Below, piece by piece: positions 3,638 through 26,630 of a DNA stretch of 32,000 nucleotides (the first letter of the stretch is position 1; each line of letters begins with the position of its first letter). Source of the DNA: Halobacteriaceae archaeon (lineage in GTDB: Archaea > Halobacteriota > Halobacteria > Halobacteriales > Halobacteriaceae); NCBI GenBank assembly GCA_042216675.1, contig JBDGTS010000007.1, positions 14,009 through 46,008 of the forward strand, in the 5' to 3' direction. Both the position numbers and the translations under genes were made by a program. A model generated the notes under the pieces. That model saw only the letters and a program-made list of their open reading frames with translations. It made no database searches and had not been told where the DNA came from.

Positions 3638-4729
3638 CTACGCGGCCACCCGGTCGAACGCCGCCGTCACCGTCACGCCCGACTCTCGCTCCGTGAGCCA
3701 CGCGTCCGCGTCGTACCGGTCGAGGAGCGTTTCGACGAGGTGTAACGCGACGCCCTCGTCCGTCTGCGTCCGCTCGTCCACGTCGTCGAACCCCGCCGCC
3801 GAGCCGAGGACCGCGGCCGTCACGGGCGAGACGTGCCCTCTGTCGTCCGCGACGCGGAGCAGGACCCGCGTGTCCGTCCGCTCGACGCGGACCGTCATCC
3901 GCTCGGCGCCGTTCTCGCCTGCCGCCGCCGCGCGGAGGAGCGCGTCGATGAGCGTCCCGAAGAGCGCGTCGGCCTCGACGTGGGCCGACGGTGGGCACTC
4001 GCCGACAGACACCGTCGCGTCGTACTCGCGTCCGTCGCCGACTGTCTCCCTGAGGACCGCGACTGCGTCGACGGGGGAGCAGTCCGCCGCGCCGTGTTCG
4101 GCCTCGATCAGCGCCCGGAGGTTCTCGACGAGCGTCACGAGGCGACGGCTCCGGTAGCGGATTCGCTCGGCGCGGCCCGCGATGGCGTCGTCGGCGCTCG
4201 CCGCGATGTCGTCGGCGTAGCCGTCGACTATCTGGAGGCCGTTGAGCAGGTGATGCCGGAGGACGCCGTTCACGAACGCGAGGTCCGTCTCCGCCGTGTC
4301 GTCCGCTTCGAGTTCGGTCGTCCGGCGCACCTCGGTGACCGACCGCCACTCCGTCACCCCGCCCCCGAGGCCGGCGACGGCGCCCGCCGCCTGCATCACG
4401 AGAAGCGCGGGGGCCGCCGACGTGACCCCACCGGGGGTGTGAAGCGCGTGGACGAGTGCGTATGCCGCCGACAACGCGATGACGCCCGCGCCGGTCCATC
4501 CGGCGACGCGCCACCGGGACCCGCAGTCCGTCGCCGACCGGAGCCAGAATCCACTCGACGCCACCGCCCCGGCCGCGAGCAACAGCACCACGGCCACCAG
4601 TCCGGCGTCGGGCGTCGGCACCCGGACCAGCAAGTAGAGTTGCGCGAGGGCACCCAACGCGAGGGCCGCGGCGATGCCGACGATGCCGACGGCGCCGTCG
4701 TCCCACGTGGTCGGGGTGGAGTGGCTCAT
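3638..4729 (-). CDS. membrane-bound sensor histidine-kinase-like protein, possibly with a degenerate ATP-binding domain
   Basis: 363 aa. About four N-terminal hydrophobic helices, an H-box-like VLRHHLLNGLQ, and a C-terminal alpha/beta domain with weak HATPase-like motifs (LIDALLRAA, VADDRGHV, DEGVALHLVETLL). A TATTAAT box at 4758-4765 sits about 30 nt upstream of the ATG. Confidence 0.75.
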   Translation of the reverse strand: MSHSTPTTWDDGAVGIVGIAAALALGALAQLYLLVRVPTPDAGLVAVVLLLAAGAVASSGFWLRSATDCGSRWRVAGWTGAGVIALSAAYALVHALHTPGGVTSAAPALLVMQAAGAVAGLGGGVTEWRSVTEVRRTTELEADDTAETDLAFVNGVLRHHLLNGLQIVDGYADDIAASADDAIAGRAERIRYRSRRLVTLVENLRALIEAEHGAADCSPVDAVAVLRETVGDGREYDATVSVGECPPSAHVEADALFGTLIDALLRAAAAGENGAERMTVRVERTDTRVLLRVADDRGHVSPVTAAVLGSAAGFDDVDERTQTDEGVALHLVETLLDRYDADAWLTERESGVTVTAAFDRVAA

Positions 4730-4784
4730 CCGTCCCGAGCGATTTCCTATCAGAGGGTATTAATGCTTCGGAGCGCGGGGCGTG

Positions 4785-6878
4785 TCACGGCTCGCGGTAC
4801 GCCGCGAGCGTCGCGTCCCTCTCGCCCCGGAGGTGTGCGCGCACGTCGCTCTCGTCCCACCCCAGCGGCGAGACGACGCTCTCGGCGGCCCGGAGCAGTG
4901 ACCGCTCGTAGGGGGCCACCGCGTAGTCGGTGGCGCCGTCCTCGACCGGGAGGCGGACCCGCTCGGCGGGGGCGCCCGCGTCCGCGACGTGGACGTACCG
5001 AACGGACTCGCCGGGGTGCGTCTCGATGCCTCTGTCGGCCGCGCGTCGGAGCGCACCCACCACCGGCGTCTCGCGGTCGTACTCGTCGGCGCGCTTCGAC
5101 GCGCGTCGCGTGACGACCAGTTCCGTGGCCGGTACGTCACCCGCCCGCAGGCGGCGTCTGTGCTCGGCGAGGCGGTCACACACCGCCGCCGGGTCCGCCG
5201 TGGCGTCGAGGACGTCCAGCAAGTCCCGCTGTGCGTCGGCGACGAACGGCGGCGTCGAGCGCTGCCGGCACTCGATGCCCCGCACCTTCAGCGACCCGTC
5301 CTCGCGGGCGCCGAAGTAGCGCGTGAGTGCCCCTCCCGGCCGCTCGCGGCGCGGCGCGAAACAGACCCAGTCGTACGTCGCCTCGTGTTCGAGGGGGATT
5401 GCCACCCGCTCTGTCACCGCCGCCGTCACGTCCGCGATGGGGTCGGGGTCGGACGCGGGCGTGAGCCACAGGCTGTCGACGATGCCGTGTAGAACGCGCC
5501 AGCCCCGCGCCTCGATTTCGCTCTTGGCGTCGAGCAGTATCTCCCTCGCGAACGCGTTGATGGCCTCGTGGCACTCGATGCGACCGAACTTCGCGTTCCG
5601 GTAGCCCTGATAGCCGAAGCAGGAGACGAGAATCCACTTCAGCGCGTCCGCCTTCGCCGCCGCCTCGGGGTCGTCGCGCGCCTTGTATCCCGCGCGGTCC
5701 TCGACGAGGGGCGCCAGCACGTCGGGGAGAAAGCCCCGGTCGTCGCAGACGCTGTAGCCGAGTTCGGGCACGTCGGCCCTGTCGTGGCAGTCACACCGGA
5801 CCGTCTCGGGGCTGACGTTGTGCTTCCGGATGACGTTCGGGTAGAGGGAGGCGAAGTCCACCTCCACCACGTCCTCGTGGCGCCCCACCTCGGGTGCGAA
5901 CGTGAACCCGCCCCGGTCGGCGGCGTGAAGCGTCGAGAGGTCCTTGAACGCCTCTGGCTCCCACTTGTTCCACGGCACCAGCACGTCCCTGTCGAGGGCC
6001 TCGCGGGACTGAATCGAGGTGAGGACGGTGCCGATGCTCCCCCACGCCGTCTCCTGTAGCGGGCGCCACGAGCGCTCCGCGAGGTCCAGCAGACCCGGGA
6101 GTCCCCCCTCGTCCCACAGAAACGAGTTCGCCCGGTCCACGATGGCCCGGCCGGGCACGTCGTAGCGTGCCGGCGAGTGCCCCGTCCGGCCGTAGCTCTC
6201 GAAGGTGTTCGCGCCCGCCAGCACGTCGTGGCCGGGCAGGCGCCCGAGGTGGCAGTCGACGCCACACGCCGCCGCCCGGTCGTGAATCAGCGGGACGAGT
6301 TCGGCCGTGTCGAGGACCAGCACGTCCGGGTCCGTCCGGTCGAGGCGGTGCGCCAGCGCCCGCAGGACGGCGCCCTCGTCGCCGGCCACCGGGTCGCCCC
6401 CGACGTGGAGGCCACCGAGGTCCCGGTCCGCCAGCGCCGCCTCGTCGACGCCCAGCGAGAGCGTCCGCAGGGATCGCGGCGGGTCCGAGGCGACGGCCGG
6501 CGTCCCCGTCTCGACGCAGTAGCGAAAGCCCGGCGCGAAGTCGACGTTGAAACACCGAATCGTCCCCGGCGCGTACTCGCGTTCGCGGTGGCCCCGGAGT
6601 TCGCGGGCGAGCGTCCGCACCTCGCCCGGCCTGTCGCAGTCGATGCGCAGGACTGGGGTGCGCTCGTCGGCGTGTAGGTCCACGTATCGGCGTGCCGTCG
6701 AGGCGGCTGCGACTTTCGGGTCGTCGCTGAGCGCCGCCCGGAGGTCCGCGCGGACTCGCTCGGGTGCGTCGACGTACAGCGTCGGCCGGTAGTCGGCGTC
6801 GCGTTCGACCCGGACCCCGTCGGCGGTTCGGTGCCACGTCACCACGCCGCCGTCGCGGATTTCAACCGCTATCGGCAT
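4785..6878 (-). CDS. family B DNA polymerase paralogue (PolB2-like) with degenerate 3'-5' exonuclease motifs
   Basis: 697 aa. Motif A is DFASLYPN (5835-5858), motif B is KWILVSCFGYQGY, and motif C is HGIVDS (5472-5489) instead of YGDTDS. A KxY-region LKVRGIECRQRS is present. The Exo I position reads FNVDFA (no DxE) and the Exo II position reads LVLDTAELVPL (no NxxxFD). Confidence 0.9.
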   Translation of the reverse strand: MPIAVEIRDGGVVTWHRTADGVRVERDADYRPTLYVDAPERVRADLRAALSDDPKVAAASTARRYVDLHADERTPVLRIDCDRPGEVRTLARELRGHREREYAPGTIRCFNVDFAPGFRYCVETGTPAVASDPPRSLRTLSLGVDEAALADRDLGGLHVGGDPVAGDEGAVLRALAHRLDRTDPDVLVLDTAELVPLIHDRAAACGVDCHLGRLPGHDVLAGANTFESYGRTGHSPARYDVPGRAIVDRANSFLWDEGGLPGLLDLAERSWRPLQETAWGSIGTVLTSIQSREALDRDVLVPWNKWEPEAFKDLSTLHAADRGGFTFAPEVGRHEDVVEVDFASLYPNVIRKHNVSPETVRCDCHDRADVPELGYSVCDDRGFLPDVLAPLVEDRAGYKARDDPEAAAKADALKWILVSCFGYQGYRNAKFGRIECHEAINAFAREILLDAKSEIEARGWRVLHGIVDSLWLTPASDPDPIADVTAAVTERVAIPLEHEATYDWVCFAPRRERPGGALTRYFGAREDGSLKVRGIECRQRSTPPFVADAQRDLLDVLDATADPAAVCDRLAEHRRRLRAGDVPATELVVTRRASKRADEYDRETPVVGALRRAADRGIETHPGESVRYVHVADAGAPAERVRLPVEDGATDYAVAPYERSLLRAAESVVSPLGWDESDVRAHLRGERDATLAAYREP

Positions 6879-7116
6879 CCATCTCGGCCCGCAGGGCGCG
6901 GAGTTCGCGCTCCTGTGCCAGCGCCACCGACAGCAGGAAGGCGATGCGCGGGTCCGCGGCGTTGAGGTGGCCCGCCGCGTCCGCGTGGGTCTCCGCTCGC
7001 TCGAACAGGGCGTCGAACGCCGGCCTGTGCCGGCGGCGGAGCGCCCGCCGGAACGGCGCGCAGTCCTCCTCGAAGCCCCGCAGGAAATCGCGGTAGGTGG
7101 GGTTGGTGCGCCCCAT
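6862..7116 (-). CDS. small predicted helical protein of unknown function, translationally coupled between the RecA-like and PolB genes
   Basis: Internal ATG of track ORF 6862-7800, giving 84 aa (MGRTNPTYRDFLRGFEEDCAPF...RALRAEMDADSG). Its start overlaps the upstream stop as ATGA (7113-7116). Its 3' end overlaps the PolB start by 17 nt (6862-6878). The upstream part of the track ORF is Arg-rich off-frame noise. Confidence 0.65.
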   Translation of the reverse strand: MGRTNPTYRDFLRGFEEDCAPFRRALRRRHRPAFDALFERAETHADAAGHLNAADPRIAFLLSVALAQERELRALRAEMDADSG

Positions 7117-7772
7117 CAGACCACCGCCTCCCTGACCGCGATGGGGTCGAGCGTCGGTCCGGGTCGGGTTCCACATCGCGCCGCCCAGTACGGAATCGTG
7201 GTCTGCCAGCGCCCGTCGCACCAGTAGCCCCGGTCCGGTGGCTCCGCGTCGGGGAAGTCGAGGCCGAGGTCCGTGGCCCGGACCCGGAGGCTGTCGGCGG
7301 CGCGGTCGGCGACTGTCTCCGCGAGGGCGTCGTCGCCCGGCGCGTCGAGCAAGACGGCCGCGTCGACGGCCTCGCCGAGGGCCGCCAGCGTCGCCACCGT
7401 CGCCTCGAACAGTCGGTCGGCGTCCCGGTCGGGCACGTCGTCGTCGCGATACAGCGACGCGACGTTCGCGGCGACGACGAGGCCGGTCGACGAGTCGGCG
7501 CGGCGCACCGCGCGCGAGGCGAGGTCGGCGTGCTGGTACGCCGTGAACGCTCTCGCCACGCGCACGTCGGCGAGTTCGCGGGGCGTCGCCCGGTCGTACA
7601 GCGCGTGCGTCACGGCGACGTTGCGCGCGTCTATCCACAGCGTCGGTCCGTCCCGGCGCCGGTGTGCGGCGACGGCGACGCGGCGAAGCGCGTCCGGTCG
7701 GCCCGGGGGGCGCGCCAGTCGCGTCGCGCCGGCGTCGAGGCGCGGAACGGTGTCGTCTGCGTGCATACCCAT
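7116..7772 (-). CDS. RecA/RadB-superfamily-like protein lacking Walker A and Walker B consensus (putative pseudo-ATPase)
   Basis: 218 aa. LWIDARN resembles the RadA/RadB V-x-Y-I-D-T-E strand. GLVVAANVASLYRDDD resembles the Walker B strand LVVVDS...LYR but has no Asp. No GxxGxGK[ST] is present (GRPDALRR occupies that position). An alternative start is the ATG at 7766, preceded by GGAGG (7773-7777 on the minus strand). Confidence 0.6.
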   Translation of the reverse strand: MGMHADDTVPRLDAGATRLARPPGRPDALRRVAVAAHRRRDGPTLWIDARNVAVTHALYDRATPRELADVRVARAFTAYQHADLASRAVRRADSSTGLVVAANVASLYRDDDVPDRDADRLFEATVATLAALGEAVDAAVLLDAPGDDALAETVADRAADSLRVRATDLGLDFPDAEPPDRGYWCDGRWQTTIPYWAARCGTRPGPTLDPIAVREAVV

Positions 7773-7836
7773 CCTCCATTACGGCGCACGGCCGGCGCAC
7801 GGGTAAGCGCGAGCCAAACCCGGAGTGAAACTGAAA

Positions 7837-8184
7837 CTAAACGAGCGCCCACGCCAGCGCCACGCCACACGTGGCGGCGACGAACGTCCCCCCAGCGTAG
7901 GTGACGGCCCGGCGCCGGCGGCCGGCCTGCCACAGCGTCACCGCGTCGACGGAGAACGAGGAGTAGGTGGTGAACGAGCCACAGGCGCCGGTGCCGACCA
8001 ACAGCGACGGGTCGCCGCCGACGCCCGAGAACGCCAGCAGTCCGAGCGCGAAACTCCCGACGGCGTTCACCGCGACGGTGCCGTACGGCGTTGCGCCGCG
8101 GTTCAGCCGGCCAGCGACGGCGTGTCGGAGGACGGCCCCGAGTGCGCCCCCGGTTCCGACGAGGAGGGCGGGCGGGAGCGTCAC
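7837..8184 (-). CDS. crcB: fluoride ion channel CrcB/FluC (second of a tandem pair)
   Basis: GTG start at 8184 overlaps the upstream stop as GTGA. The 115-aa hydrophobic product has the CrcB hallmarks GTxxVNxxGSFxLG and GxCGxFTTxSxF (GACGSFTTYSSF). Confidence 0.85.
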   Translation of the reverse strand: MTLPPALLVGTGGALGAVLRHAVAGRLNRGATPYGTVAVNAVGSFALGLLAFSGVGGDPSLLVGTGACGSFTTYSSFSVDAVTLWQAGRRRRAVTYAGGTFVAATCGVALAWALV

Positions 8185-8555
8185 GCCCACGCACCTCCGA
8201 CGCGGCGCGCGACGGCTTGCCCGACGAGGACGCCGGCGAACCCGAGCGCGTACGTCGCGAGAAGGTTCGCGAGTGGCCACGCGCCGGGCGCCCGGAGCGT
8301 CTCCACGGCGAACGTGCTGTACGTCGTGAAGGAGGCGAGCAGGCCCGTGCCGAAGACGAGGCGGTGTCGGCCCGCGAGCAGGTCGGTCATCGCGTCGGCG
8401 AGCAGCCAGCCGAGCGCGAGGCTTCCCACGGCGTTCACGAGCAGGGTGCCGCCGAGGCCCGGCAGGGCGCCGTCCACGAGGTATCGCAGGTTCGCCCCGA
8501 CGAAGCCGCCGGCGGCCACGAGCGCGGCGGTTTCGGCGCGGCCGGCGTCGGTCAT
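8181..8555 (-). CDS. crcB: fluoride ion channel CrcB/FluC (first of a tandem pair)
   Basis: ATG at 8555 (MTDAGRAE...), 124 aa, with LLVNAVGSLALG and GLLASFTTYSTF motifs. A tandem pair is the usual arrangement for heterodimeric Fluc channels. Confidence 0.9.
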   Translation of the reverse strand: MTDAGRAETAALVAAGGFVGANLRYLVDGALPGLGGTLLVNAVGSLALGWLLADAMTDLLAGRHRLVFGTGLLASFTTYSTFAVETLRAPGAWPLANLLATYALGFAGVLVGQAVARRVGGAWA

Positions 8556-8634
8556 CGGTGTCGATTCGGCGGAGGGGCACCTGAAGCCTGCGGGATGGAA
8601 AAGGCTAACCGTCGCGTGGGTAAACTCCGCACAG

Positions 8635-9630
8635 ATGCACCGGATTGCCATCGTCGGCATGGGCGGGTTCGGTCACCACCTCGCCCGACAGGTCGTCGCC
8701 CACGAGGGCACGACGCTGGCCGCCGTCGTCGACCTCGACGAGGGGTCGCTCCGTGAGGCGGCCGAGGAGTACGACCTCGAGGAGGCACAGTTGTTCACGG
8801 ACGCGGAGGCGATGTACGACGCGACGACGCTCGACGCCGTCCTCGTCGCGACGCCGCCCGCATTCCACTTCGAGCAAGTCACCGACGCCCTCGACCGGGG
8901 CCACCACGTCCTCTGTGAGAAGCCGGTCGTGATGGACACCGAGGAGGCCCGTGCGCTCCTCGACCGGGCCGAGTCGACGGACCGCGTCGTGATGACGGGC
9001 TACCAGCGCCACCTCAACCCCGGCTTCGTCCACGCCCGGGAGCGCTGGCGCGACGCCGACCTCGAACCGACGTTCGTCACGGGCGAACTCACGCAGGACT
9101 GGACCGACCACTTCGAGTCGGGCGAGAACTGGCGCACGAACCCCGAAATCGGCGGCTACGGTCACCTGTTCAGCGTCGGCACCCACGTCGTCGAGTCCAT
9201 CCTCTGGCTCACCGGCCTCACGCCCGACACGGTGACCGCCCAGATGGAGTTCCACGACGACGGCCGCATCGACAAGCAGTCGTCGCTCACGGTGCGCTTC
9301 GAGAACGGCGCCACCGCGAGCATCGGTGACACCGCCACGGCGCCCGCCACGCGCGAACACATCCACGTCTGGGACGACGAGGGTGCCGTCTATCTGGCGG
9401 GCGAGGACTGGGGCCGCCGCGAACTCACCGTCTACGACGCCGACAACAACGACGTGACGCCGGCCGTGAACTACGACGAGGCGCCGACGAAAGTCGAGGC
9501 GTTCGTCGACGCCATCGAGTCCGGCACCGAACCGCCCTCCACGGCGGCGGACGCCCTGCGCGTGACGGCGTTGCTGGAGGCGGCCTACGAGTCGGCGAAT
9601 AAAAATCGGGAAGTCGACGTCGACCTCTGA
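8635..9630 (+). CDS. Gfo/Idh/MocA-family NAD(P)-dependent oxidoreductase
   Basis: The ATG at 8635 is internal to track ORF 7825-9630; the upstream part of that ORF is antisense to the crcB genes. The product begins MHRIAIVGMGGFGHH (Rossmann GxGxxG) and contains the CEKP motif. 331 aa. Confidence 0.9.
   Translation: MHRIAIVGMGGFGHHLARQVVAHEGTTLAAVVDLDEGSLREAAEEYDLEEAQLFTDAEAMYDATTLDAVLVATPPAFHFEQVTDALDRGHHVLCEKPVVMDTEEARALLDRAESTDRVVMTGYQRHLNPGFVHARERWRDADLEPTFVTGELTQDWTDHFESGENWRTNPEIGGYGHLFSVGTHVVESILWLTGLTPDTVTAQMEFHDDGRIDKQSSLTVRFENGATASIGDTATAPATREHIHVWDDEGAVYLAGEDWGRRELTVYDADNNDVTPAVNYDEAPTKVEAFVDAIESGTEPPSTAADALRVTALLEAAYESANKNREVDVDL
9598..9606 (-). terminator. oligo-T tract (ATTTTTATT on the minus strand), possible terminator of the beta-helix gene, embedded in the convergent oxidoreductase CDS
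   Basis: AATAAAAAT on the plus strand encodes the unusual AT-rich codons AAT AAA AAT (N-K-N). It lies about 30 nt downstream of the minus-strand stop at 9637. Archaeal terminators are typically oligo-T runs. Confidence 0.3.
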
Positions 9631-9636
9631 GCCGCG

Positions 9637-11898
9637 TTACTTGATGCGGACGTCGTCGAGGACGCCCGTCTTGCGGGCGCCGATGCCGCCCTCGGAGAAC
9701 GCGGTGTCGGTGGTGTTGACCGTCGCGAGCGAGTCGCCCTCGGGACCCAACACCTCGACGTCGATGGTGCCGTCCGTGCCCCAGTCCACGACGATGCTGT
9801 AGAGCGTGTTTGCGGACGTGCTGATGACGGACTCCGCGAGTTGGCTGTAGGAGCCGCCCTCGCGCTTGTACAGTTGGAGGCGGTTCGTGTCGTAGATGCG
9901 CGCGAAGTAGAAGTTGTCAGCGTCCTGCACGCCGAACGCGATTCCGGCGTTCACCTCCGTCTCGGTGCGCGCCACGCGGGCGAAGAACTCGTCGCCGGCG
10001 GACGGGTAGCGCGGGAGGCCGCTCGTCGAGTAGAAGATGGCTGTGCCCTCCGCCGTCTTCTTCAGGCTGTAGTCGCCGTCGGCCACCGGGTCGTCCGTGT
10101 TGACGGTGTACGCGTCCGTCGCGCCCTCGTACTCCGAGAGGTCGCCGTCCTCGAAACTGTCCACGAGGTCGCCGGTGAGGTCCGCGGCGCCGCCGCTCCC
10201 GCCGCTACTGCTCGGGACGAACCCCTTCGCTTGCTGTTGGTCGACGATGTACGTCACGTCGAGGTCGGAACCGGGGTCGGCGGTCCACTCGAAGACGAGG
10301 TCCCACGCGCTCCCGGTCCACTCGAAGCGGGTGTCGAAGCCGAAGGCCGCGCCGGGGTTGCTCGCGGCCCGGGCGCGGACGGCAAGCGACGCGCCGACGG
10401 CGTCGGAGACGTCCGTGACGCGCGCCGCGGGCGAGGACCCGGACGTGAGCGTCACGTTACCGGCGTCGACGCCGCCGCCCACGTTGTCCTTGACGGTGGT
10501 GTCCGGCGCGAACACTTCCATCGCCGCTCGCGTGCCGGACCCGCGCACGTCGTTGCCGACGATGCGACTGGTCGTCGTGTCGGGGCCCGTCTCCCGGATG
10601 CCGAAGGGCATCTTCGGTTCGTCCCTGTCGTCGACGACGCGGAGGTCCGTGATGGAGACGCCCGAGGTGGCCGCGAAGTTCCGCGGGTCCTCGGGGATGC
10701 CGCCGGCGTCTCGCGAGTCGATGCGGACGCCCTCGGCGTTGGAGTTCTTGATGACGCCGCCCTGCACGGAGAAGTTCTGGCAGTCCTGCACGAGGACGCC
10801 GTGCGAGGACATGCCGACGAGGTTGACCGAATTGATGGTGACGTCCTCACACCCGGAGACGCCGAAGACGCCCCGGCCGCCGTCGCGGCCGACGACCTGT
10901 CCACAGGTCACGTCGGCGCACTCGTTGGCGACCCGGAACGTCGCGTAGCCACCGCCCGGATTTACCTCGCGGCCGACGACTTGGCCGATGGTGGCGTCCG
11001 TGGTGTTGTTCAGCAGGACGCCGGACCCCGGCGTCTTGTTGGCGATGACCTGTCCGACCTGCAGGCGGTCCACGCCGTACGTCTCGAAGGCCTGCCAGCC
11101 GGCCTCCTCGATGTACGCGGTGTCCACCTGCACGTCCTTGCACCGCCGTTCGGAGTCGCCAAAGGAGTCGATGCGGACGGCCAGACCGCCGCGAGGCGTC
11201 TGTTCGGCGTCCATCTCGATGTTGACCGCGCCCAGACGGGCCTCCCGCACGCCCTGTAGCCAGACGGCGTAGCGGGGGTTGCCCTTGATGTTGAGGTTCG
11301 GGAACTCGACGTTGTCGGCGTCGTTCGCGTACACCGCGCGGATGAGCGGTTCGTTCGAGTCCTTGATGTGGATGGGGGCCGGCACGTCGAGAATCGTGTT
11401 GCTCGGCACGCGAATCTCCTTGAAGCCGTCCCACGGGCCGTCGCCCCACGAGTGCGGGCCGACTTCGGCGGGCGAGACGATGGCCACTTTCTCCTTGTGG
11501 TCACGGCCGTCGGTGAGGCTCTCGATGGCCGCCGTGGCCGCCAGCATCACGTCGTCGGTGCTGGTGACGTGGCCGTCGCGGCCGTCCGCGTGCCAGCCGC
11601 CATCGTCGTCTTTCCACACCACCACGTCGGCGTCGCGTGCCGACGCGTACACGTGGTCCACGTCGATGGAGTGGAGATTGTCGAGGTCGTGGTCCTGTGC
11701 GTTCACGTCCTGATTCCACTTCCGCGTCCGTCGCCCTGTTTCGTTCCCCGGCGCGTCGCCGTGGGACGCCGCCGCGTTCCCCGTCGCCGCCGCGACGCCG
11801 CCAGCTCCCATCAGTGCGAGTGCCGACCGGCGTGTGAACGTCAAGTCGTCGCCGGCCCCGCTCGCGTCACCGCTGTCACTGTCGCTATCACGAAGCAT
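9637..11898 (-). CDS. Tat-secreted right-handed parallel beta-helix protein with a C-terminal concanavalin/LamG-like domain (candidate extracellular polysaccharide lyase or hydrolase)
   Basis: 753 aa. A twin-arginine signal TFTRRSALALMGAGGVAAATG is present. The middle region has repetitive G/N/V-rich beta-helix-type repeats (GVLLNNTTDATIG, VTINSVNLVG, GGVIKNSNAEGVRI). A Gly/Ser linker precedes a roughly 190-aa beta-sandwich-like C-terminus. Confidence 0.8.
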   Translation of the reverse strand: MLRDSDSDSGDASGAGDDLTFTRRSALALMGAGGVAAATGNAAASHGDAPGNETGRRTRKWNQDVNAQDHDLDNLHSIDVDHVYASARDADVVVWKDDDGGWHADGRDGHVTSTDDVMLAATAAIESLTDGRDHKEKVAIVSPAEVGPHSWGDGPWDGFKEIRVPSNTILDVPAPIHIKDSNEPLIRAVYANDADNVEFPNLNIKGNPRYAVWLQGVREARLGAVNIEMDAEQTPRGGLAVRIDSFGDSERRCKDVQVDTAYIEEAGWQAFETYGVDRLQVGQVIANKTPGSGVLLNNTTDATIGQVVGREVNPGGGYATFRVANECADVTCGQVVGRDGGRGVFGVSGCEDVTINSVNLVGMSSHGVLVQDCQNFSVQGGVIKNSNAEGVRIDSRDAGGIPEDPRNFAATSGVSITDLRVVDDRDEPKMPFGIRETGPDTTTSRIVGNDVRGSGTRAAMEVFAPDTTVKDNVGGGVDAGNVTLTSGSSPAARVTDVSDAVGASLAVRARAASNPGAAFGFDTRFEWTGSAWDLVFEWTADPGSDLDVTYIVDQQQAKGFVPSSSGGSGGAADLTGDLVDSFEDGDLSEYEGATDAYTVNTDDPVADGDYSLKKTAEGTAIFYSTSGLPRYPSAGDEFFARVARTETEVNAGIAFGVQDADNFYFARIYDTNRLQLYKREGGSYSQLAESVISTSANTLYSIVVDWGTDGTIDVEVLGPEGDSLATVNTTDTAFSEGGIGARKTGVLDDVRIK

Positions 11899-11975
11899 GC
11901 CTATCTTTATCTATGATTCGAGTTATTAAAAGTTATTTTAGAAATATATAGTTTTGTTCGAGGCCACGCGGCCGC
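11899..11975 (-). promoter_or_regulatory. strongly AT-rich promoter region of the beta-helix gene
   Basis: About a quarter G+C by hand count. On the minus strand, TTTTAATAA and CTATATATTT TATA-like boxes lie about 25-50 nt upstream of the ATG at 11898. AGTTATT occurs twice as a direct repeat (11921-11927 and 11931-11937). Confidence 0.5.
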
Positions 11976-12050
11976 TCAGCGGATGCGCACGTCGTCGAGC
12001 ATCCCGGTCCGGCGCGTGCCGAACCCGCCGAAGCGGTGGGTCGTGTGGCA
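11976..12050 (-). pseudogene. remnant of the 3' end of a paralogue of the beta-helix/LamG gene
   Basis: The minus-strand translation ...HTTHRFGGFGTRRTGMLDDVRIR* aligns with the C-terminus of 9637-11898 (...NTTDTAFSEGGIGARKTGVLDDVRIK*). The DNA identity is visible directly (GATGCG-ACGTCGTCGAG). The frame is closed by an in-frame stop about 52 codons upstream and has no start codon. Confidence 0.45.
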
Positions 12051-12134
12051 GCGCCGGGCCCGGTCGCTCCGCCGCGAGGCCCATCGGCGTGGCAGAATTG
12101 CTGCGGGCGCGGAGAACGGCCGGGAAACGCCGGC

Positions 12135-13067
12135 TTATAGCGCGTCGAGGTCCTGCAGAATCTCGCGGAGTTCGTCCTTCTCCTCGGGCGGGAGGGTCTG
12201 TCCCGGCGGGCGGACGGTGTCGTGTTCGAAGACGCCCTGCATCTTCAGGGCGGCCTTCGTTCGGTTGCGATTGCGGCCGATGGGCTCCTTGAACAGGAAG
12301 TTCGTCAGGTCGGCCATCTCCGCGCGGAGTTCGCGACCGCGTTCGAGGTCGCCCTCTCGGACGGCGCGGAGTTTCTCGACGTGCATCTCGGGGATGAGGT
12401 TGGCGTAGGCGATGAGGCCCGTCTCGGCACCGAAGACGTAGGAGTGGTACAGGAACAGGTCCTCGCCGGTCATCAGCGTGAACTGGTCGCGGTACGGCTT
12501 GGTGGCGCGCACCGTCTCCTCGTAGCGCACCGGGTCGAAGGTGGCGTTCTTGAGGGCGACGACGAAGTCCTCCTGCACGAGTTCGGCGTAGGCGCTGACC
12601 GGGAGCGAGAAGTCGCCGAAGTTGCCGAACTGGAACGCGATGAGGGGGATGTCGACGGCCTCACCGATGCCCCGGTAGTGGTCGAGCAGAATCTGCGGGT
12701 CGCCGTGGCTGTACAGGTCGATGGGGACCGGCATCAGGGCGTCGGCGCCGGCCGCCTCCGCTCGCTTCGCCTCCTCGATGGCCTGCGGGGTACTCTCCCC
12801 GGCGATGCCCGAGAAGACCATCGCGTCCTCGGAGGCCTCGTCGTGAATCTCGATGACTCGCTCCTTGTCCTCGGGGGGCGACATCTGGCACTCGCCGGAG
12901 TGGGCGTTAGCGATGGTGGCGACGATGCCGTCCGTCTCGCTGAGCGACTGGACGTGGTCGTGCAGGTCGTCCTCCGCGACTTCGAGGTCCGGTGTCAGCG
13001 GCGTCACCGTGGCGGGGATGATGCCGCCCTTGATGGCGTCTTTGACCGCCTCGTATTCGGGCTTCAT
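12135..13067 (-). CDS. DapA/DHDPS-NAL superfamily class I aldolase or dehydratase (for example KD(P)G aldolase or keto-deoxy sugar-acid dehydratase)
   Basis: The ATG at 13067 is internal to track ORF 12135-13229. 310 aa. SGE resembles the GTTGE motif and VVALKNAT resembles the Schiff-base lysine motif. The overall pattern is a TIM barrel. Confidence 0.8.
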   Translation of the reverse strand: MKPEYEAVKDAIKGGIIPATVTPLTPDLEVAEDDLHDHVQSLSETDGIVATIANAHSGECQMSPPEDKERVIEIHDEASEDAMVFSGIAGESTPQAIEEAKRAEAAGADALMPVPIDLYSHGDPQILLDHYRGIGEAVDIPLIAFQFGNFGDFSLPVSAYAELVQEDFVVALKNATFDPVRYEETVRATKPYRDQFTLMTGEDLFLYHSYVFGAETGLIAYANLIPEMHVEKLRAVREGDLERGRELRAEMADLTNFLFKEPIGRNRNRTKAALKMQGVFEHDTVRPPGQTLPPEEKDELREILQDLDAL

Positions 13068-13191
13068 GTACACAGAAAGGCGGTGCGGCGGACCATATAC
13101 CAGTTTCGCCTTTGTCGGTGGCCGCGCGCAACGGCGCCGTCCGGCGGACGAAACCCTATCCTTTTTGACGCCATCCGCCGGAGTCGGTTCC

Positions 13192-14679
13192 ATGACAGAC
13201 CGAATCAGGGTCGACCCCGAAGCGGACATCGACGAAATTAGCCCCCACGTCTTCGGGCACTTCGCGGAGCATCTCGGCCGCTGTATCTACGGCGGCATCT
13301 GGGACGGCGACGAGGACGCCGCCATCGAGGAGGGCATCCGCGACGACACGCTCTCGCTCCTGCAGGGCCTCGACATGCCGAACCTCCGCTGGCCCGGCGG
13401 CTGTTTCGCCGACGACTACCACTGGGAGGACGGCGTCGGCCCGCGCGAGGAGCGACCCCGACGCCGCAACGTCCACTGGGTGCAGGGCCGCGACGAGGAG
13501 TGGGAGGAGTCCAACCAGTTCGGCACCGACGAGTTCCTCCGACTCTGTGAACTGCTCGACACCACCCCGTACCTCGCCGCCAACGTCGGCTCCGGCGACC
13601 CCGGCGAGGCGATGGACTGGGTGGAGTACTGCAACTACGACGGCGACACGGAACTGGTCGACCGCCGCGCCGAGAACGGCCACGAGGAGCCCTACGACGT
13701 GCCCTACTGGGGCGTCGGCAACGAGAACTGGGGCTGTGGCGGCGACTACGAACCCGCGGACTACGCCCGCGAGTTCCGCCGCTACGCCACTTACCTCAAC
13801 GCCTTCGGCGGCAACATGAACCCCGGCGAGAAACTGGACCTCATCGCCTGTGGCCACATCGCCGGCGACTGGAATCAGGAGTTCATGAAGAACATGGCCG
13901 AGGCGGGCGGCCAGAACGCGATGGACCACCTCTCGGTCCACCGGTACTACAACGCCGGGGACGCGACGGACTTCGACGAGGACGACTACTACACACTGCT
14001 CGCTCGGTCACTGGCCCTCGCCGACGACATCGACCAGACGGCGGACACCATCAACACGTACGCGCCCGCCGCCGACATCGGCGTCGTCGTCGACGAGTGG
14101 GGCGTCTGGCACCCCGAGGCGAAAAACGACAACGGCCTCGAACAGTCCCAGACGGTCCGCGACGCCGTCTCCGCCGCGGGCGTCCTCGACATCTTCGCCA
14201 ACCGCGCCGACGTGGTGTCGATGGCGAACATCGCCCAGACGGTCAACGTCCTCCAGTGTCTCGTCTACACGGACGAGGACGACGCGTGGCCCACCCAGAC
14301 GTATCAGGTGTTCGACCTCTACGAACCGCACATGGGCGCGACGGCCGTCCGCTCCTACGTCGAGACGGACGAGCGTGAGGTCGAGAACGAACGCGACGTG
14401 CCCCTCGTCTCGGCGTCTGCCTCCCGCACCGACGACGGCGTGTTCGTGACGCTCTCGAACCGTGACCTCGACGACCGCGAGGTGACCATCGACATCGGTC
14501 TCGACGACCCCACGGTGGCCGAGGCCGAGGTGCTGTTCGACGACGCCGACGCCGACGCGGAGGTCACGAAGGACAACGCCGACGAGTTCGCGGCCGACAG
14601 CCTCGACGTGGACGTCGACGCTGGGGAAGTCGCCTTCGACGCGCCCGGCAGTTCCGTCGTCGCGATTCGCGTGGAGTAG
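13192..14679 (+). CDS. abfA: alpha-L-arabinofuranosidase, glycoside hydrolase family 51
   Basis: The ATG at 13192 is internal to track ORF 12853-14679. 495 aa. Contains LRWPGGCFADDYHW, VGNENWGCGG (acid/base Glu) and VDEWGVW (nucleophile Glu). No signal peptide. Confidence 0.9.
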   Translation: MTDRIRVDPEADIDEISPHVFGHFAEHLGRCIYGGIWDGDEDAAIEEGIRDDTLSLLQGLDMPNLRWPGGCFADDYHWEDGVGPREERPRRRNVHWVQGRDEEWEESNQFGTDEFLRLCELLDTTPYLAANVGSGDPGEAMDWVEYCNYDGDTELVDRRAENGHEEPYDVPYWGVGNENWGCGGDYEPADYAREFRRYATYLNAFGGNMNPGEKLDLIACGHIAGDWNQEFMKNMAEAGGQNAMDHLSVHRYYNAGDATDFDEDDYYTLLARSLALADDIDQTADTINTYAPAADIGVVVDEWGVWHPEAKNDNGLEQSQTVRDAVSAAGVLDIFANRADVVSMANIAQTVNVLQCLVYTDEDDAWPTQTYQVFDLYEPHMGATAVRSYVETDEREVENERDVPLVSASASRTDDGVFVTLSNRDLDDREVTIDIGLDDPTVAEAEVLFDDADADAEVTKDNADEFAADSLDVDVDAGEVAFDAPGSSVVAIRVE

Positions 14680-14724
14680 GCGGAACCGATAAACCCTTCA
14701 CCCGTCCCGGGGAATCGCCGCCAC

Positions 14725-15714
14725 ATGAAATTCGGCATCTTCCCCACCGAAGGGGGACGCAACTTCGACGACGCCGTCGAGGAGTGCAAACTCGCGGAGG
14801 ACGTCGGTTTCGACTCCGCGTGGGTCAACGACCATCAGGCGACGGAGGGTGAGAACTACTGGCCCGCGCCGCTGGCGCGGCAGGCCGGCATCGCGACGAC
14901 GACCGACGAACTCGAACTGGTGACGGCGGTCATGATTCTGCCGCTGTACCACCCGCTCCACGTCGCCCAGCGCGCGGCGCAGTTGGACCTGATGTCCGAC
15001 GGCCGCCTCACGCTCGGCGTCGGGCTGGGCTACGTGCCAAAGGAGTTCGAGGCGTTCGGCGTCCCGATGGACGAGCGTGCGGGCCGACAGATCGAGGGCG
15101 TGAAGTTCCTCGATAAGTTCTTCCGCGCCGACGGTCCCATCGACTTCGAGTGCCCGTTCTTCGAGGTCGAGGACTGGCAGCCCCTCCCCGAACCCGTGCA
15201 GGAGCCGCGCCCGCCGCTCTGGATCGGCGGCTGGGGCGACAAACAGCTCCGCCGCTCCGTGCAGTTCAGCGACGCGTGGGTGCCGGGCGTCGTCGTCGAC
15301 AACGAGGGCGTCGAGAAGCGCACGCACAAGCTGAAGGGCATGGTCGAGGACATGGACAAGGACTGGGACTCGATGGCCCACCCGCTGATGCGCGAGGGCG
15401 TCATCGCCGAGACCCACGAGGAGGCCGTCGAACTCGGGAAGGAGTACCTGTATCAGTCCTACCTCGACGAGTACGGCGGGGAGTTCGAGCACCCCTACAT
15501 CGAGCAGGAGGACCTCGAAACCTTCGAGAAACTCGCCGAGGACCACTTCCTCGTTGGCACGCCCAACGAGGTCATCGAGCAGATCGAGGACATGAAGAGC
15601 CGGTTCGCGCTGGACCACCTCGCCGTGCGCTTCCACCACTCCGGCATGCCCGGCGACAAGGTGCGCGAACAGATTGAACTGTTCGGCGACGAAGTGCTGC
15701 CGGCCTTCGAGTGA
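14725..15714 (+). CDS. LLM-class (luciferase-like) flavin- or F420-dependent oxidoreductase
   Basis: 329 aa. Begins MKFGIF...GFDSAWVNDH and contains LGVGLGY and PPLWIGG, a typical luciferase-like monooxygenase fold pattern. Confidence 0.85.
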   Translation: MKFGIFPTEGGRNFDDAVEECKLAEDVGFDSAWVNDHQATEGENYWPAPLARQAGIATTTDELELVTAVMILPLYHPLHVAQRAAQLDLMSDGRLTLGVGLGYVPKEFEAFGVPMDERAGRQIEGVKFLDKFFRADGPIDFECPFFEVEDWQPLPEPVQEPRPPLWIGGWGDKQLRRSVQFSDAWVPGVVVDNEGVEKRTHKLKGMVEDMDKDWDSMAHPLMREGVIAETHEEAVELGKEYLYQSYLDEYGGEFEHPYIEQEDLETFEKLAEDHFLVGTPNEVIEQIEDMKSRFALDHLAVRFHHSGMPGDKVREQIELFGDEVLPAFE

Positions 15715-15735
15715 CGGCCGACTTCCCGCGCCCGT

Positions 15736-18633
15736 TCAGGGCGCCGGCCCGTACAGTTCGACCTCCAGCAGTTCGAGGTAGGTGCGCCCGCTCTCGCGGT
15801 CCGACTGGTGTGTCTCGCCCGTTATCTCGACGATTTCCTCGAAGGCGTCCTCGGCGAGCGTCGCGCCTTCGAGAGCGACGGTCACGTACTGCCCGTCCGT
15901 CGGGTCGAAGGTGACGTGGTCGTAGGCGAGCGTCTGCCCGACCGTCCCCCGCCAGACTTCCTCGTCGTCGACGGCGACCCGGATGGGATACTCCGTCGTG
16001 CGGTGACCGGCGACCTTCAGTCGGAGTTCGCCGACGGTTCGCTCGCCCCCGAGGTCGAAGCGTATCCACGCTCGCTCGGGGTCGTCCGCGCTCCGCCAAC
16101 CGCTGTTCTCGTCGTCGTCGACCGTGTTCGCCGCGCCCTCGGCGTTCGACCCGGCCGTGACTGCCTCGGGAGTCCACGGCAGTCGCGTCTCGTCGTACGC
16201 GATGCCGTCCGGCGTCGGGCCGCGGTCGAGGTTCGACGGGAGTCCGTCGCCGGGTTCGTGGGGCGTCAGACCGCCCGCCAGTTCGATGGGCTCCGTCTCC
16301 AGTTCGACCGTCGCGGGGTCGAGACCGTCGCTCCGCGCCGTCACTGTCACGGTCCCGGGGACGAGCGTGGAGCGCACGAGAGCGCGGTTGACGCCGAGTT
16401 CGACCGGCAGGTCCGCGTCGAGGACGTGGTTTTCTGGCCCCTCGGCGATGCCGCCGCGCCACTCGGCCGGCCCCTCGACCTCGAATTCCACGTCGTCGAA
16501 CGCGAGGGGGTGACGACGGCCCTCGTCGTCGACGACTTCGACTTCGAGGAGTGCCACGTCGTGGCCGTCCGCGCGCCAGCCGTCGGGGCTGGTCTCCGCG
16601 GTCAGTTCGAGCGCCGTCGGCTCACCGACCGTCTCCTCGACGGCCTCACACACCTGCTCGCCAGCCGCGTCGTAGCCGACGGCCCGAAGTTCGCCGGGTT
16701 CGAACGCAACGTCCGCGAACGTGAAGACGAACCGCTCGGAGCGCTCGCCCTCGCCGAGCGACTCGCCGTTGCGGAACAACTCGACGGATTCGGCGCTTGA
16801 GACGACCGTCACGTCCCGAACCGTGTCCGAATCGTAGTTCCAGTGCCCGAGGATGACCGCGTGGTGCGTCTCGGGTTCGACCCAGCCGTCCCAGATGGCC
16901 TCGTGCGCGTGGAACGCCTCCTTGGGGATGCGCATCGGGTCCGTCTCGCCGCTCCGGCGGTAGTTGTCCTCGCCGCGGTAGTGGGTGTTCGTGTCGCTGA
17001 AGATGATGTTCTGGCCGCCCGAACTCACGCGCTGCCCGGTGCCGGGGCGCTCGCGCCAGTACTCCCACCAGCGCACCACGTCCTCGACGGTGAACGTGTC
17101 CTGATTCAGGTTGTAGCGCTCGCCTTCGCCCTCCCCTTCGCCGTCCTCGTGGTACGGCGGAGAGTCCTCGTCCCAGTAGCGACGCGAGGCCTCGCTCCGG
17201 TTGTACTCGGTGGCGAACAGCGGTTTGTCCGCGCTCTTGTTCACGTAGAGCATCTCGCCGCCCCACTCCGCAACGTCGCTGTCGAGCATCTCGCGACAGC
17301 CCATCGCCCGCCCGCCGTGCGGGTCGAAGCGGTCGCGGAGACGGACGAGTTCGGCCATGTGCTCCTCGCTGATGGCCTCGTTGCCGCCCTCGTAGAAGAC
17401 GACGCTGGGATTGTTTCGGTTGTAGATGATGGCGTCGCGCATCAGTTCGACGCGCTGGTCCCAGTGACGCCCCTCGCTGTCGCTCTCGGCGTCGCCGGCG
17501 GGCAGGAGTTGGATGAGGCCCATCCGGTCACAGGACTCGACGTCCTGTTTCCACGGCGTGACGTGCATCCAGCGCACGACGTTCGCGTTCCCCTCGACCA
17601 TCATGCCGTTCGAGAAGTCGCTGAGCCACGCGGGGACGCTCCGTCCGATGGCGGGCCACTCGTTGGTCGTCCGCTGGGCGTAGCCCTTGAGTTGGATGGT
17701 TCGGTCGTTGAGTTCGACGCGGCCGTTCTCGAAGTTCGTCTTCCGGAAGCCGGTGGTCGTCGTCACCGTGTCCACCACCTCACCGTCGACTGTGAGGCGC
17801 GTCTCTACGTCGTAGAGGTAGCCGTAGCCCCAACTCCAGAACTCGAGGTCGGAGACGTCGGCGTTGGCGTCGAGGGTGACGGTGGCGCCCGGCGGGACGG
17901 TGCGCTCGCCGCCGTCGAACTCGGCCACCGTCTCGCCGTCCGGGTCGCGCATCTCCACCTCGTAGCCCACCGTTCGCTCGGTGTCGTGTTCGTTGCGGAC
18001 CTCCGACTCGGCGGTGACCGTCGCCGTGTTCGCGTCGACGTCGATGTCGTCCGCGTACACGTAGACGCCCGTCGTCCCGAGCCACGAGTAGAGGGGAAGC
18101 GTCTGGTAGAGTTTGTCGGTGAGGTGGAGTTTGACGTTCTTCGTCACGCCGCCGTAGTTGGCGTTGAAGTTGCGGTCGGCCCACCGGAACGTCTCGCCAG
18201 TCGCCGCCTCCTCGTAGTCCCAGTCGTTGTCGACGCGCACTGCGAGGACGTTCTCGCCGTCGGGGTCGACCTGTGCGGTGAGGTCGAAGCCGAAGGCCAT
18301 CACGCCGTTCTCGTGGCGGCCGAGGAACTCGCCGTTCAGGTACACCTCCGCGGCCTGTCGGACGCCCTCGAACTCCACGAATGCCTTCTTCTCCGCGGTG
18401 CCCTCGGGGAGCGTGAACGTCTTTCGGTACCACGCGACGCCCGTCGAGAGGCCGTAGATGTCCTCGCGGAACGCCTCGTCCTCGTTCCACGCGTGCGGGA
18501 CGCTCACCTGCTCCCAGCCGCCGTCGTCGAACGACGGGTCCGCCGCGCCGTCGGGGTCGCCGACGCGGACCCGCCAGTCGGGGTTCATGCTGTACGTCTC
18601 ACGGGACCAATCAGGATCGGATTCGGGCGTCAT
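15736..18633 (-). CDS. glycoside hydrolase family 2 protein with a C-terminal F5/8 type C (discoidin)-like domain
   Basis: The ATG at 18633 (MTPESDPDW...) is internal to the 1460-aa track ORF, whose first 495 codons are antisense to the GH4 gene. Contains a GH2 sugar-binding region (WRVRVGDP...WEQVSVPHAWN...WYRKTF) and NRNNPSVVFYEGGNE (acid/base). No signal peptide. 965 aa. Confidence 0.9.
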   Translation of the reverse strand: MTPESDPDWSRETYSMNPDWRVRVGDPDGAADPSFDDGGWEQVSVPHAWNEDEAFREDIYGLSTGVAWYRKTFTLPEGTAEKKAFVEFEGVRQAAEVYLNGEFLGRHENGVMAFGFDLTAQVDPDGENVLAVRVDNDWDYEEAATGETFRWADRNFNANYGGVTKNVKLHLTDKLYQTLPLYSWLGTTGVYVYADDIDVDANTATVTAESEVRNEHDTERTVGYEVEMRDPDGETVAEFDGGERTVPPGATVTLDANADVSDLEFWSWGYGYLYDVETRLTVDGEVVDTVTTTTGFRKTNFENGRVELNDRTIQLKGYAQRTTNEWPAIGRSVPAWLSDFSNGMMVEGNANVVRWMHVTPWKQDVESCDRMGLIQLLPAGDAESDSEGRHWDQRVELMRDAIIYNRNNPSVVFYEGGNEAISEEHMAELVRLRDRFDPHGGRAMGCREMLDSDVAEWGGEMLYVNKSADKPLFATEYNRSEASRRYWDEDSPPYHEDGEGEGEGERYNLNQDTFTVEDVVRWWEYWRERPGTGQRVSSGGQNIIFSDTNTHYRGEDNYRRSGETDPMRIPKEAFHAHEAIWDGWVEPETHHAVILGHWNYDSDTVRDVTVVSSAESVELFRNGESLGEGERSERFVFTFADVAFEPGELRAVGYDAAGEQVCEAVEETVGEPTALELTAETSPDGWRADGHDVALLEVEVVDDEGRRHPLAFDDVEFEVEGPAEWRGGIAEGPENHVLDADLPVELGVNRALVRSTLVPGTVTVTARSDGLDPATVELETEPIELAGGLTPHEPGDGLPSNLDRGPTPDGIAYDETRLPWTPEAVTAGSNAEGAANTVDDDENSGWRSADDPERAWIRFDLGGERTVGELRLKVAGHRTTEYPIRVAVDDEEVWRGTVGQTLAYDHVTFDPTDGQYVTVALEGATLAEDAFEEIVEITGETHQSDRESGRTYLELLEVELYGPAP

Positions 18634-18774
18634 GGGGAATCTCTCGAACTGGTGGGATGCCGACGAGTGGCCACTTATACGTACGGGTCGGCGAAGGGCC
18701 GCGGCGACCCGGTAAACCCGACGCCTCTGCTCCAAGAGACACCTTTTTGGTGTGGTCCCGCATTCCACAGGCGT

Positions 18775-23990: not shown

Positions 23991-23992
23991 CG

Positions 23993-25198: not shown

Positions 25199-25261
25199 GG
25201 GCCGACTTCACCTGCCTGACGGCAATAAACGCTCACGTAGGGGAAATCCGCGGGGGCTTCG

Positions 25262-26488: not shown

Positions 26489-26630
26489 CGTCCCCACTCT
26501 GGACCCCCCTGATTTAAGTCTCCTGCCCGTCGTCGAAAATATCGAGCGGTGTGTGTTCCGATATTCGACACATAGGAAACGCGGATGATGGAAAATTATA
26601 TATGTGGCTGTGTCAATTGTCGTCACACAC
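26489..26630. promoter_or_regulatory. divergent promoter between PL22 and the solute-binding protein gene, with inverted repeats between two TATA boxes
   Basis: The TATA box for the minus-strand gene is GATTTAAGT (26511-26519). The TATA box for the plus-strand gene is AAAATTATATAT (26592-26603), about 30 nt before the ATG at 26631. Between them lie TCGAAAATATCGA (26533-26545) and its near-inverted copy CCGATATTCGA (26558-26568). GTGTGTGT and ACACACA also occur in this region. Confidence 0.5.

Follow-up and report, generated by a model that had tools for sequence, protein, structure and literature searches.

An iRadA-PPB2-PolB2 operon in a Halobacteriaceae archaeon and its putative damage-responsive promoter

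Gene organization and products of the cassette

The DNA analysed here, referred to as the window, is a stretch of 32,000 nucleotides (nt) from a Halobacteriaceae archaeon (contig JBDGTS010000007.1 of assembly GCA_042216675.1, positions 14,009 to 46,008), in which positions 4785 to 7772 carry a cassette of three minus-strand genes coding for an inactivated RadA/Rad51 paralogue (iRadA), a small protein named Partner of PolB2 (PPB2) and a family B DNA polymerase without exonuclease motifs (PolB2). The window has a GC content of about 70% along its whole length, with no shift in composition at the cassette, and its best database matches are haloarchaeal. An earlier reading made from the letters of the window (hereafter the original prediction) had described three minus-strand genes here, and open reading frames (ORFs) were found exactly where it had placed them: iRadA, of the arCOG07763 type, at 7116..7772 (stop codon included; 218 amino acids, aa), PPB2 at 6862..7116 (84 aa) and PolB2 at 4785..6878 (697 aa). 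The third-position GC of the three ORFs, 0.90-0.91, fits coding sequence in a 70% GC genome, and the same three genes are called in independent assemblies of the same organism, with lengths of 216, 84 and at least 419 aa, respectively. An alternative start of iRadA, at the second ATG (7766), would give a product of 216 aa.

The genes are tightly coupled. The overlap between PPB2 and PolB2 is 17 nt long (6862-6878), as had been predicted, whereas the junction between iRadA and PPB2, previously given as an ATGA overlap at 7113-7116, in fact reads GTC TGATG GGG, with the stop codon TGA at 7118-7116 and the ATG at 7116-7114, the two genes sharing the single nt 7116. We collected 80 haloarchaeal loci (L001-L080) by a scan with iRadA patterns that took one genome per species. 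In about 70 of the 80, the three genes lie side by side on a single strand in the order iRadA, PPB2, PolB2; in four loci, about 4-5 kb of inserted sequence separates iRadA from PPB2, contig ends interrupt a few, and three loci represent additional copies that lack PolB2. Of 69 related loci, 36 have a spacing of -1 nt at the iRadA/PPB2 junction, and nearly all are within 6 nt there; at the PPB2/PolB2 junction, the spacing mostly falls in the range from -20 to +6 nt. Flanking genes vary from genome to genome while the trio is constant. In the window, the cassette is flanked by a pair of crcB genes, an oxidoreductase gene, a histidine-kinase-like gene and a MarR/PadR gene, of which the histidine-kinase-like gene, the crcB pair and the MarR/PadR gene are not conserved beside the operon in other loci and are therefore not members of it. 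The co-occurrence that the original prediction had proposed to look for is thus the rule among these loci, and the three genes are conserved as a unit.

Single-sequence scans of the 218-aa protein against Pfam and NCBIfam returned nothing useful, the only match being RadB at E=0.08. The protein is 100% identical to a hypothetical protein from a Halobacteriaceae metagenome-assembled genome (MAG), and its 362 homologues are haloarchaeal without exception. A profile built from 55 family members, however, matched the RadA/Rad51 ATPase cores in PDB at E=4.9e-8. An AlphaFold2 (AF2) model built with the family alignment (predicted local distance difference test, pLDDT, 87.7; predicted template modelling score 0.83) was compared with PDB by Foldseek, and the top 50 matches were all DMC1, RadA or RAD51, with E values of about 3e-9 to 1e-7 and TM scores of about 0.6. 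Profile and structure searches thus both put the protein inside the RadA/Rad51 fold, and the original assignment, a RecA/RadB-like protein lacking the P-loop lysine and the Walker B aspartate, held in each of its parts. Specifically, LWIDARN (residues 45-51) aligns with the strand after the P-loop helix of RadA, and GLVVAANVASLYRDDD (residues 97-112) aligns with the Walker B strand, in which the window protein has Ala, and the family consensus has Pro, in place of the RadA aspartate; the position of the Walker A motif, GxxxxGK[ST], reads PPGRPDA, and the whole protein contains no lysine. The matches correspond to isolated C-terminal ATPase domains of RadA, the core beginning at about residue 12 and the N-terminal helical (oligomerisation/DNA-binding) domain being absent. 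On this evidence from alignment and modelling, the 218-aa product is a predicted RadA-fold pseudo-ATPase in which both Walker motifs are destroyed.

Three blocks, ARAFTAYQH, SLYRDDDVP and WQTTIPYW, are invariant in the iRadA family. The last of these (residues 189-196; 7185-7208 on the minus strand) is identical in 55 of 55 aligned homologues, although confidence in the monomer model is low at this position (pLDDT 54-58). It is probably an interface element. WQTTIPYW also resembles a PCNA-interacting protein (PIP) box, but with its register off by one residue. When the iRadA alignment was used in an exhaustive profile search, 940 representatives were obtained; a cluster look-up could name only one of them, a homologue (P0384) whose annotation places it in a Candidatus Nanohaloarchaea MAG. 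Perhaps the family reaches into these small-genome symbionts, or perhaps the contig was mis-binned.

The 84-aa protein gave no useful match when it was itself scanned against Pfam and NCBIfam, but for its homologues (n=281) the precomputed Pfam family is PF26485 (DUF8156), corresponding to arCOG07300. Its N-terminal arm, MGRTNPTYR, belongs to a near-invariant start MGRTNPTYRD, with G2, R3, P6, T7 and R9 identical in 44 of 44 aligned homologues, and PPB2 begins with MGR[TS] in 69 of 75 loci; the published signature of the protein is an MGRT motif with Arg3 and Arg9 (Timinskas et al. 2025). The structure check that had been suggested for this protein succeeded in part: the AF2 model is confident (pLDDT 89.8) and has three helices (residues 8-25, 28-51 and 56-83) with the N-terminal arm free, but Foldseek detected no significant match to the model in PDB. 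A sigma-factor-like fold has been published for PPB2. The predicted three helices and the MGRT arm together identify the 84-aa protein as PPB2.

The 697-aa protein scored 853 bits against NCBIfam NF004418 (cutoff 692) and matched Pfam PF00136 in its polymerase domain only (E=4.9e-20); PolB structures in PDB matched residues 266-692 with E values down to 3e-38. Over its first 406 residues it shares 50% identity (E=9e-112) with the PolB2 of Halanaeroarchaeum, a type 1a entry of the published dataset, and, judged by such pairwise identity, it is a member of the PolB2 (Dpo2-like) group. No Pfam exonuclease domain was found in it, and no PDB polymerase alignment began before about residue 260, indicating the apparent absence of an exonuclease domain, as the original prediction had recognized. 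Motif A is intact (DFASLYP, residues 341-347, with the catalytic D341). Motif B, which had been described as kept, is altered to KWILVSCFGYQGY and retains the Lys, and a change in motif C had gone unmentioned: alignment to Thermococcus PolB shows that DTD has become I466-V467-D468 (within HGIVDS; 5475..5483, minus strand), with loss of the first catalytic Asp. HGIVDS is invariant in 63 haloarchaeal PolB2 sequences, as are the Asp of motif A, the second Asp of motif C and the Lys of motif B, all of which are present in the window protein. Loss of the first Asp in motif C is a hallmark of PolB2, and HGIVDSIWV/IVD is tabulated for Halobacteria among the published entries (Timinskas et al. 2025).

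Two further segments of PolB2 stand out by conservation. Column conservation among the 63 sequences revealed a loop block, LAG.NT[YF]ESYG..GHSPARY.VPGR..VD[R], at residues 220-249 (6132..6221, minus strand). It ends in a candidate D(K/R) motif, D248-R249, of which the Asp is present in 57 of the 63 sequences and is followed by R, T or E; its putative counterpart in S. islandicus is DK 253-254. In published models, the loop region of PolB2 binds iRadA in the manner of the Rad51 oligomerisation motif and contacts the PPB2 arm through the D(K/R) motif (Timinskas et al. 2025). In addition, the C-terminus carries D-A-T-L-A-A-Y-R (4794..4817, minus strand), a PIP-like motif predicted from family conservation and from published motif tables to bind PCNA. 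Almost all of the 63 haloarchaeal sequences have ..L[ST]AF.. at this position, the window version being LAAY, and among the entries of the published tables TTSLSAFG and ATSLSAFE are rated as PCNA-binding (Timinskas et al. 2025).

Promoter elements upstream of the operon

The region before iRadA contains a tandem TTTCA element, AGTTTCAGTTTCA (7826..7838, minus strand), which includes two copies of ANTTTC and which we predict to be a damage-responsive operator. Its 11-bp core, TTTCAGTTTCA (7826-7836), sits 54-64 nt before the ATG at 7772, directly past the stop codon of crcB. The tandem element is the sole match in the 32-kb window, compared with 0.05 matches expected by chance. A second block, TGGCTCGCGCTTAC (7803..7816, minus strand), lies about 30 nt upstream of the same ATG, has a TATA-like end and is the putative promoter; the consensus TGGCTCGC.CTTTAC is common to type-1 promoters, with a fixed spacing from the tandem element, and TGGCTCGCGCTTAC is the window version of it. 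With the TATA-like block only about 30 nt before the ATG, a near-leaderless transcript is predicted.

Two published elements resemble this arrangement. In Halobacterium sp. NRC-1, the 11-bp sequence TTTCACTTTCA, which contains an internal repeat of TTTCA and precedes the TATA box, about 50 nt ahead of the start codon, was described as a response motif for ultraviolet (UV)-B, its targets being the UV-B-induced genes radA1, top6B, vng17 and vng280 (Boubriak et al. 2008). The window element agrees with it in the 11-bp TTTCA repeat, in the position upstream of TATA and in the distance to the start codon, but the published targets do not include a PolB2 operon. The other is ANTTTC, the element bound by Orc1-2 of Sulfolobus, in which the induction of dpo2 depends on Orc1-2: the dpo2 promoter carries ANTTTC bound by Orc1-2, and the window promoter carries two copies of it. 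The extended Orc1-2 consensus, AATAGTTTCRGWDTACTCWS, is similar to TTTAGTTTCAGTTTCACTCC of the window. The presence of the tandem element in the operon promoter supports damage-responsive control of the window operon, as predicted from these motif resemblances.

We found that two kinds of tandem element precede iRadA in the 80 loci. The TTTCA tandem is present upstream of iRadA in 29 loci, none of which has an adjacent orc1/cdc6 gene, whereas a CGGAA-N3-6-CGGAA tandem is present in 31 loci, 20 of them with orc1/cdc6 immediately upstream on the same strand. The association between promoter type and an adjacent orc1/cdc6 gene gives a Fisher p=2e-8, a value that overstates independence, the loci being related to one another. 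In all, 29 of the 80 loci have an adjacent orc1/cdc6 gene, and these genes themselves carry tandem elements whose distance to the Walker A codons is constant, of the CGGAA type in 16 of the 29 and of the TTTCA type in three. When the strict form TTTCA[CG]TTTCA was sought in the 0.87 Mb of sequence covered by the loci, 18 matches were obtained, all of them on the strand of the operon. Of these, 12 directly precede iRadA, three directly precede an adjacent orc1/cdc6 gene and the remaining three lie 1.4-3 kb from the iRadA start (in L001, where the match is downstream of PolB2, and in L047 and L068). By a simple phmmer comparison, the adjacent orc1/cdc6 paralogue resembles Orc1-1 of S. solfataricus and ORC1 of A. 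pernix more closely than ORC2.

The distribution of the two promoter types suggests two regulatory wirings. As a tentative proposal, which we regard as possible but rather doubtful, the TTTCA/ANTTTC tandem could be the haloarchaeal counterpart of the Sulfolobus Orc1-2 damage element, operons without an orc gene being controlled through a UV element shared with radA1 and orc-adjacent operons through a dedicated, autoregulated Orc protein acting on the CGGAA tandem, which the orc gene and the operon alike bear at fixed positions in their promoters. If this were true, an ancient DNA-damage regulon controlled by Orc1/Cdc6 would take in the PolB2 operons of both archaeal phyla. A link between tandem promoter elements and PolB2 operons was not found in the literature searched, and the TTTCA tandem falls outside the analyses of Makarova et al. 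(2014) and Timinskas et al. (2025). The element provides a concrete handle on damage induction of the operon and on the regulator that binds it, in organisms that are genetically tractable.

Two crcB (fluoride channel) genes in tandem, overlapping by 4 nt, occupy 7837-8560 on the minus strand and end immediately upstream of the operon promoter. An Rfam search over the window detected no RNA family and no fluoride riboswitch before crcB, and a scan for sigma-70 promoters and terminators, which is uninformative for archaea, gave only one weak hairpin, inside crcB.

Relation to the PolB2 mutasome and alternative explanations

Predicted operons that combine genes for an "inactivated" PolB2, for arCOG07300 and for RadA-family proteins that are inactivated were first noted by Makarova, Krupovic and Koonin (2014), who also reported that the haloarchaeal RadA derivative was detectable only by HHpred and that some haloarchaea have extra two-gene copies. 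Timinskas, Timinskas and Venclovas (2025) introduced the names PPB2 and iRadA for the partners, classified the operon types and modelled the complex as a "PolB2 mutasome". The idea of the original prediction is thus not new, the cassette being an ordinary member of a system already described. The supplementary tables of the later study mention Halobacteria several hundred times, and the rows examined are of type "1a (iRadA-PPB2-PolB2)", with HGIVDS.WV/IVD in motif C, MGRTNPTYRD in PPB2, WQTTIPYW in iRadA and TTSLSAFG at the C-terminus of PolB2. The window operon agrees with the published type 1a in its gene order and tight coupling, in a PPB2 whose MGRT arm has Arg3 and Arg9, in a PolB2 with IVD, no exonuclease site and a C-terminal L..[FY] motif of the PCNA type, and in an iRadA consisting of a RadA core without N-terminal domain or Walker motifs.

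The best-studied relative is Dpo2 of S. islandicus (Sulfolobus/Saccharolobus), which is damage-inducible and exonuclease-free and is the sole source of targeted mutagenesis in that organism; it efficiently extends mismatched and lesion-paired termini and is a robust polymerase despite IID in its motif C. The two systems share the three protein families, the substitution of the first Asp of motif C and an inactive exonuclease. In Sulfolobales, however, the gene order is PPB2-PolB2-iRadA (type 3a) and iRadA is less degenerate, whereas the window iRadA belongs to a haloarchaeal lineage in which the similarity to RadA becomes apparent only with profile methods. The original statement that no system of this composition had been characterised experimentally accordingly applies to the three-protein complex, but not to the Sulfolobus PolB2 (Dpo2), which has been characterised both genetically and biochemically.

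Taken together, the data are very probably best explained by a chromosomal haloarchaeal copy of the type 1a iRadA-PPB2-PolB2 operon, coding for a translesion-extender complex under a damage-responsive promoter. The original suggestion of a damage-tolerance or mutagenesis module with a pseudo-ATPase and a small adaptor fits well with the published view of the operon, with the family membership of all three proteins and with the UV motif in the promoter. In the published models the assembly is a PolB2-iRadA-(PPB2)3 heteropentamer, in which the PolB2 loop ahead of the D(K/R) motif binds iRadA as Rad51 subunits bind one another and PPB2 reaches with its MGRT arm, which bears Arg3 and Arg9, into the space between PolB2 and iRadA, close to the DNA; the clamp-binding motif is optional and is carried by iRadA in some cases and by PolB2 in others (Timinskas et al. 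2025). Modelled on this assembly, the three window products would form PolB2-iRadA-(PPB2)3; the PolB2 loop, mimicking the Rad51 oligomerisation motif, would bind iRadA; one PPB2 arm would be inserted beside the active site and the DNA; and the C-terminal LAAY of PolB2 would tether the complex to PCNA. By analogy with Dpo2, the complex may act as a translesion extender without proofreading, prolonging mismatched or lesion-paired primer ends, and the outcome would be damage tolerance paid for in mutations. Transcription would start from the near-leaderless promoter, and the tandem TTTCA element would place the operon in the haloarchaeal UV/DNA-damage regulon.

Several observations weigh against this explanation. 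No orc1/cdc6, SRAP or DUF72 gene, the enriched neighbours according to the literature, adjoins the window operon, in which it differs from the published type 1a. The window TTTCAGTTTCA differs by one base from the published UV motif TTTCACTTTCA. In iRadA, the P-loop remnant is RPD compared with RST in the family, and the C-terminus, ...PIAVREAVV, is without the tail and the clamp-binding motif of many homologues, a second difference from type 1a; in PolB2, the C-terminal motif has Tyr where most homologues have Phe. In addition, the architecture of the complex rests on published AlphaFold models, and the haloarchaeal evidence is limited to the deletability of H. volcanii polB2, which is cited in a review as unpublished data, with the function read across from Sulfolobus by analogy. 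A damage-inducible translesion function of the haloarchaeal operon is thus a prediction.

Another possibility is a catalytically inert regulatory complex, acting in fork handling, origin regulation or an alternative mode of replication initiation, as proposed by Makarova et al. (2014), who noted the link to Orc genes. The loss of the first catalytic Asp of motif C, the altered motif B and the missing exonuclease motifs of PolB2 may be read in this way, as may the adjacent orc1/cdc6 genes in 29 of our 80 loci. However, S. islandicus Dpo2, with the same kind of substitution (IID), is a robust polymerase and a source of targeted mutagenesis, and the invariance of the catalytic residues that remain in window PolB2 and its 63 homologues argues for retained catalysis, as far as can be judged from alignment. 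We therefore consider an inert complex unlikely and a translesion extender the better explanation.

An origin of the cassette from a mobile element or a plasmid-derived replication module with its own family B polymerase (casposon, provirus or integrated plasmid) is less likely still, and we regard it as very improbable. PolB2 homologues (about 50% identity) do occur on 111 haloarchaeal plasmids or megaplasmids of many genera, the records all being typed as non-mobilizable, and the gene on pNRC200 lies beside insertion sequence (IS) elements, an orc gene and toxin-antitoxin genes. However, the window cassette shows no break in base composition; the repeat search found no inverted or direct repeats bounding it, and Rfam no RNA genes; and no integrase, Cas1 or capsid genes are present near it, the neighbours being crcB, the oxidoreductase gene and the histidine-kinase-like gene. 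Moreover, neighbours differ between genomes while the trio is constant, and an exonuclease-dead PolB2 whose motif C is mutated does not resemble the polymerases, protein-primed or of casposons, that Makarova et al. (2014) describe.

As an evolutionary homologue of the bacterial ImuA-ImuB-DnaE2 cassette, with which it has in common the number of three genes, a protein of RecA fold that lacks ATPase motifs and an error-prone polymerase, the operon can be dismissed, with a probability close to nil, since homology is shared only in the RecA fold and fails for two of the three components by family assignment: the polymerase belongs to family B rather than being a C-family DnaE2, the 84-aa protein is a three-helix DUF8156 protein rather than a Y-family-like ImuB, and both profile and structure put iRadA nearest to the RadA, Rad51 and DMC1 of archaea and eukaryotes rather than to bacterial RecA or ImuA. 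The original comparison to that cassette thus stands as a functional analogy. The literature draws a parallel between the PolB2 complex and Pol V and Pol zeta. Escherichia coli Pol V (UmuD'2C-RecA) and ImuA-ImuB-DnaE2 are, as the PolB2 complex is predicted to be, multi-subunit, damage-inducible and error-prone, with a RecA-family protein and a small arm-bearing subunit that reaches the active site; the polymerases, however, are of families Y and C rather than B, the small subunits are unrelated, and Pol V uses an active RecA whereas iRadA is inactive.

For a family already catalogued, the window operon is one more orthologue, and a single new orthologue matters little alone. It illustrates that the logic of the PolB2 mutasome can be recovered by a reading of sequence only. 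Experiments on this family have so far been confined to Sulfolobales.

Other copies of the genes and further features of the window

Among the extra copies without PolB2, locus L008 (JBHSYX010000001.1) has an iRadA-PPB2 pair at 5986-6912, and its iRadA is the nearest named cultured relative of the window iRadA (52% identity). The same genome has a solitary, frameshifted iRadA (L071, 5940-6671, JBHSYX010000001.1) preceded by a triple TTTCA element.

The plasmid pNRC200 of Halobacterium NRC-1 (L083, 282084-298228; locus 4540-9169) carries polB2 without an intact iRadA or PPB2. A remnant of PPB2 (..FDRLFEYARAHTDASGLLNHQNP..) is present at about 4540-4790 of this locus, followed by a promoter, TTTTACTTTCACTCCGG, and then by an IS200/IS605 transposase gene; polB2 starts 240 nt past the transposase gene, and orc4 is located downstream on the opposite strand. 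By its position and the near-match to the motif, this transposase is probably the UV-B-induced 'npa' of Boubriak et al. (2008), for which it is a candidate. Small UV-induced ORFs near polB2 on pNRC200 were considered as possible PPB2 genes; the annotated ORF of 79 aa was ruled out, its N-terminus being DEDD-exonuclease-like. The PPB2 remnant lies just upstream of this ORF.

Elsewhere in the window, positions 9637-26632 hold a large polysaccharide-degradation cluster, with genes for a beta-helix protein, an alpha-L-arabinofuranosidase, a 1460-aa protein of glycoside hydrolase (GH) family GH2, a 1258-aa GH106-like rhamnosidase and two oligogalacturonate-lyase-like proteins, and a solute-binding protein gene (26604-28790) comes after it. 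The gene set of the cluster suggests the use of pectin or rhamnogalacturonan by this haloarchaeon.

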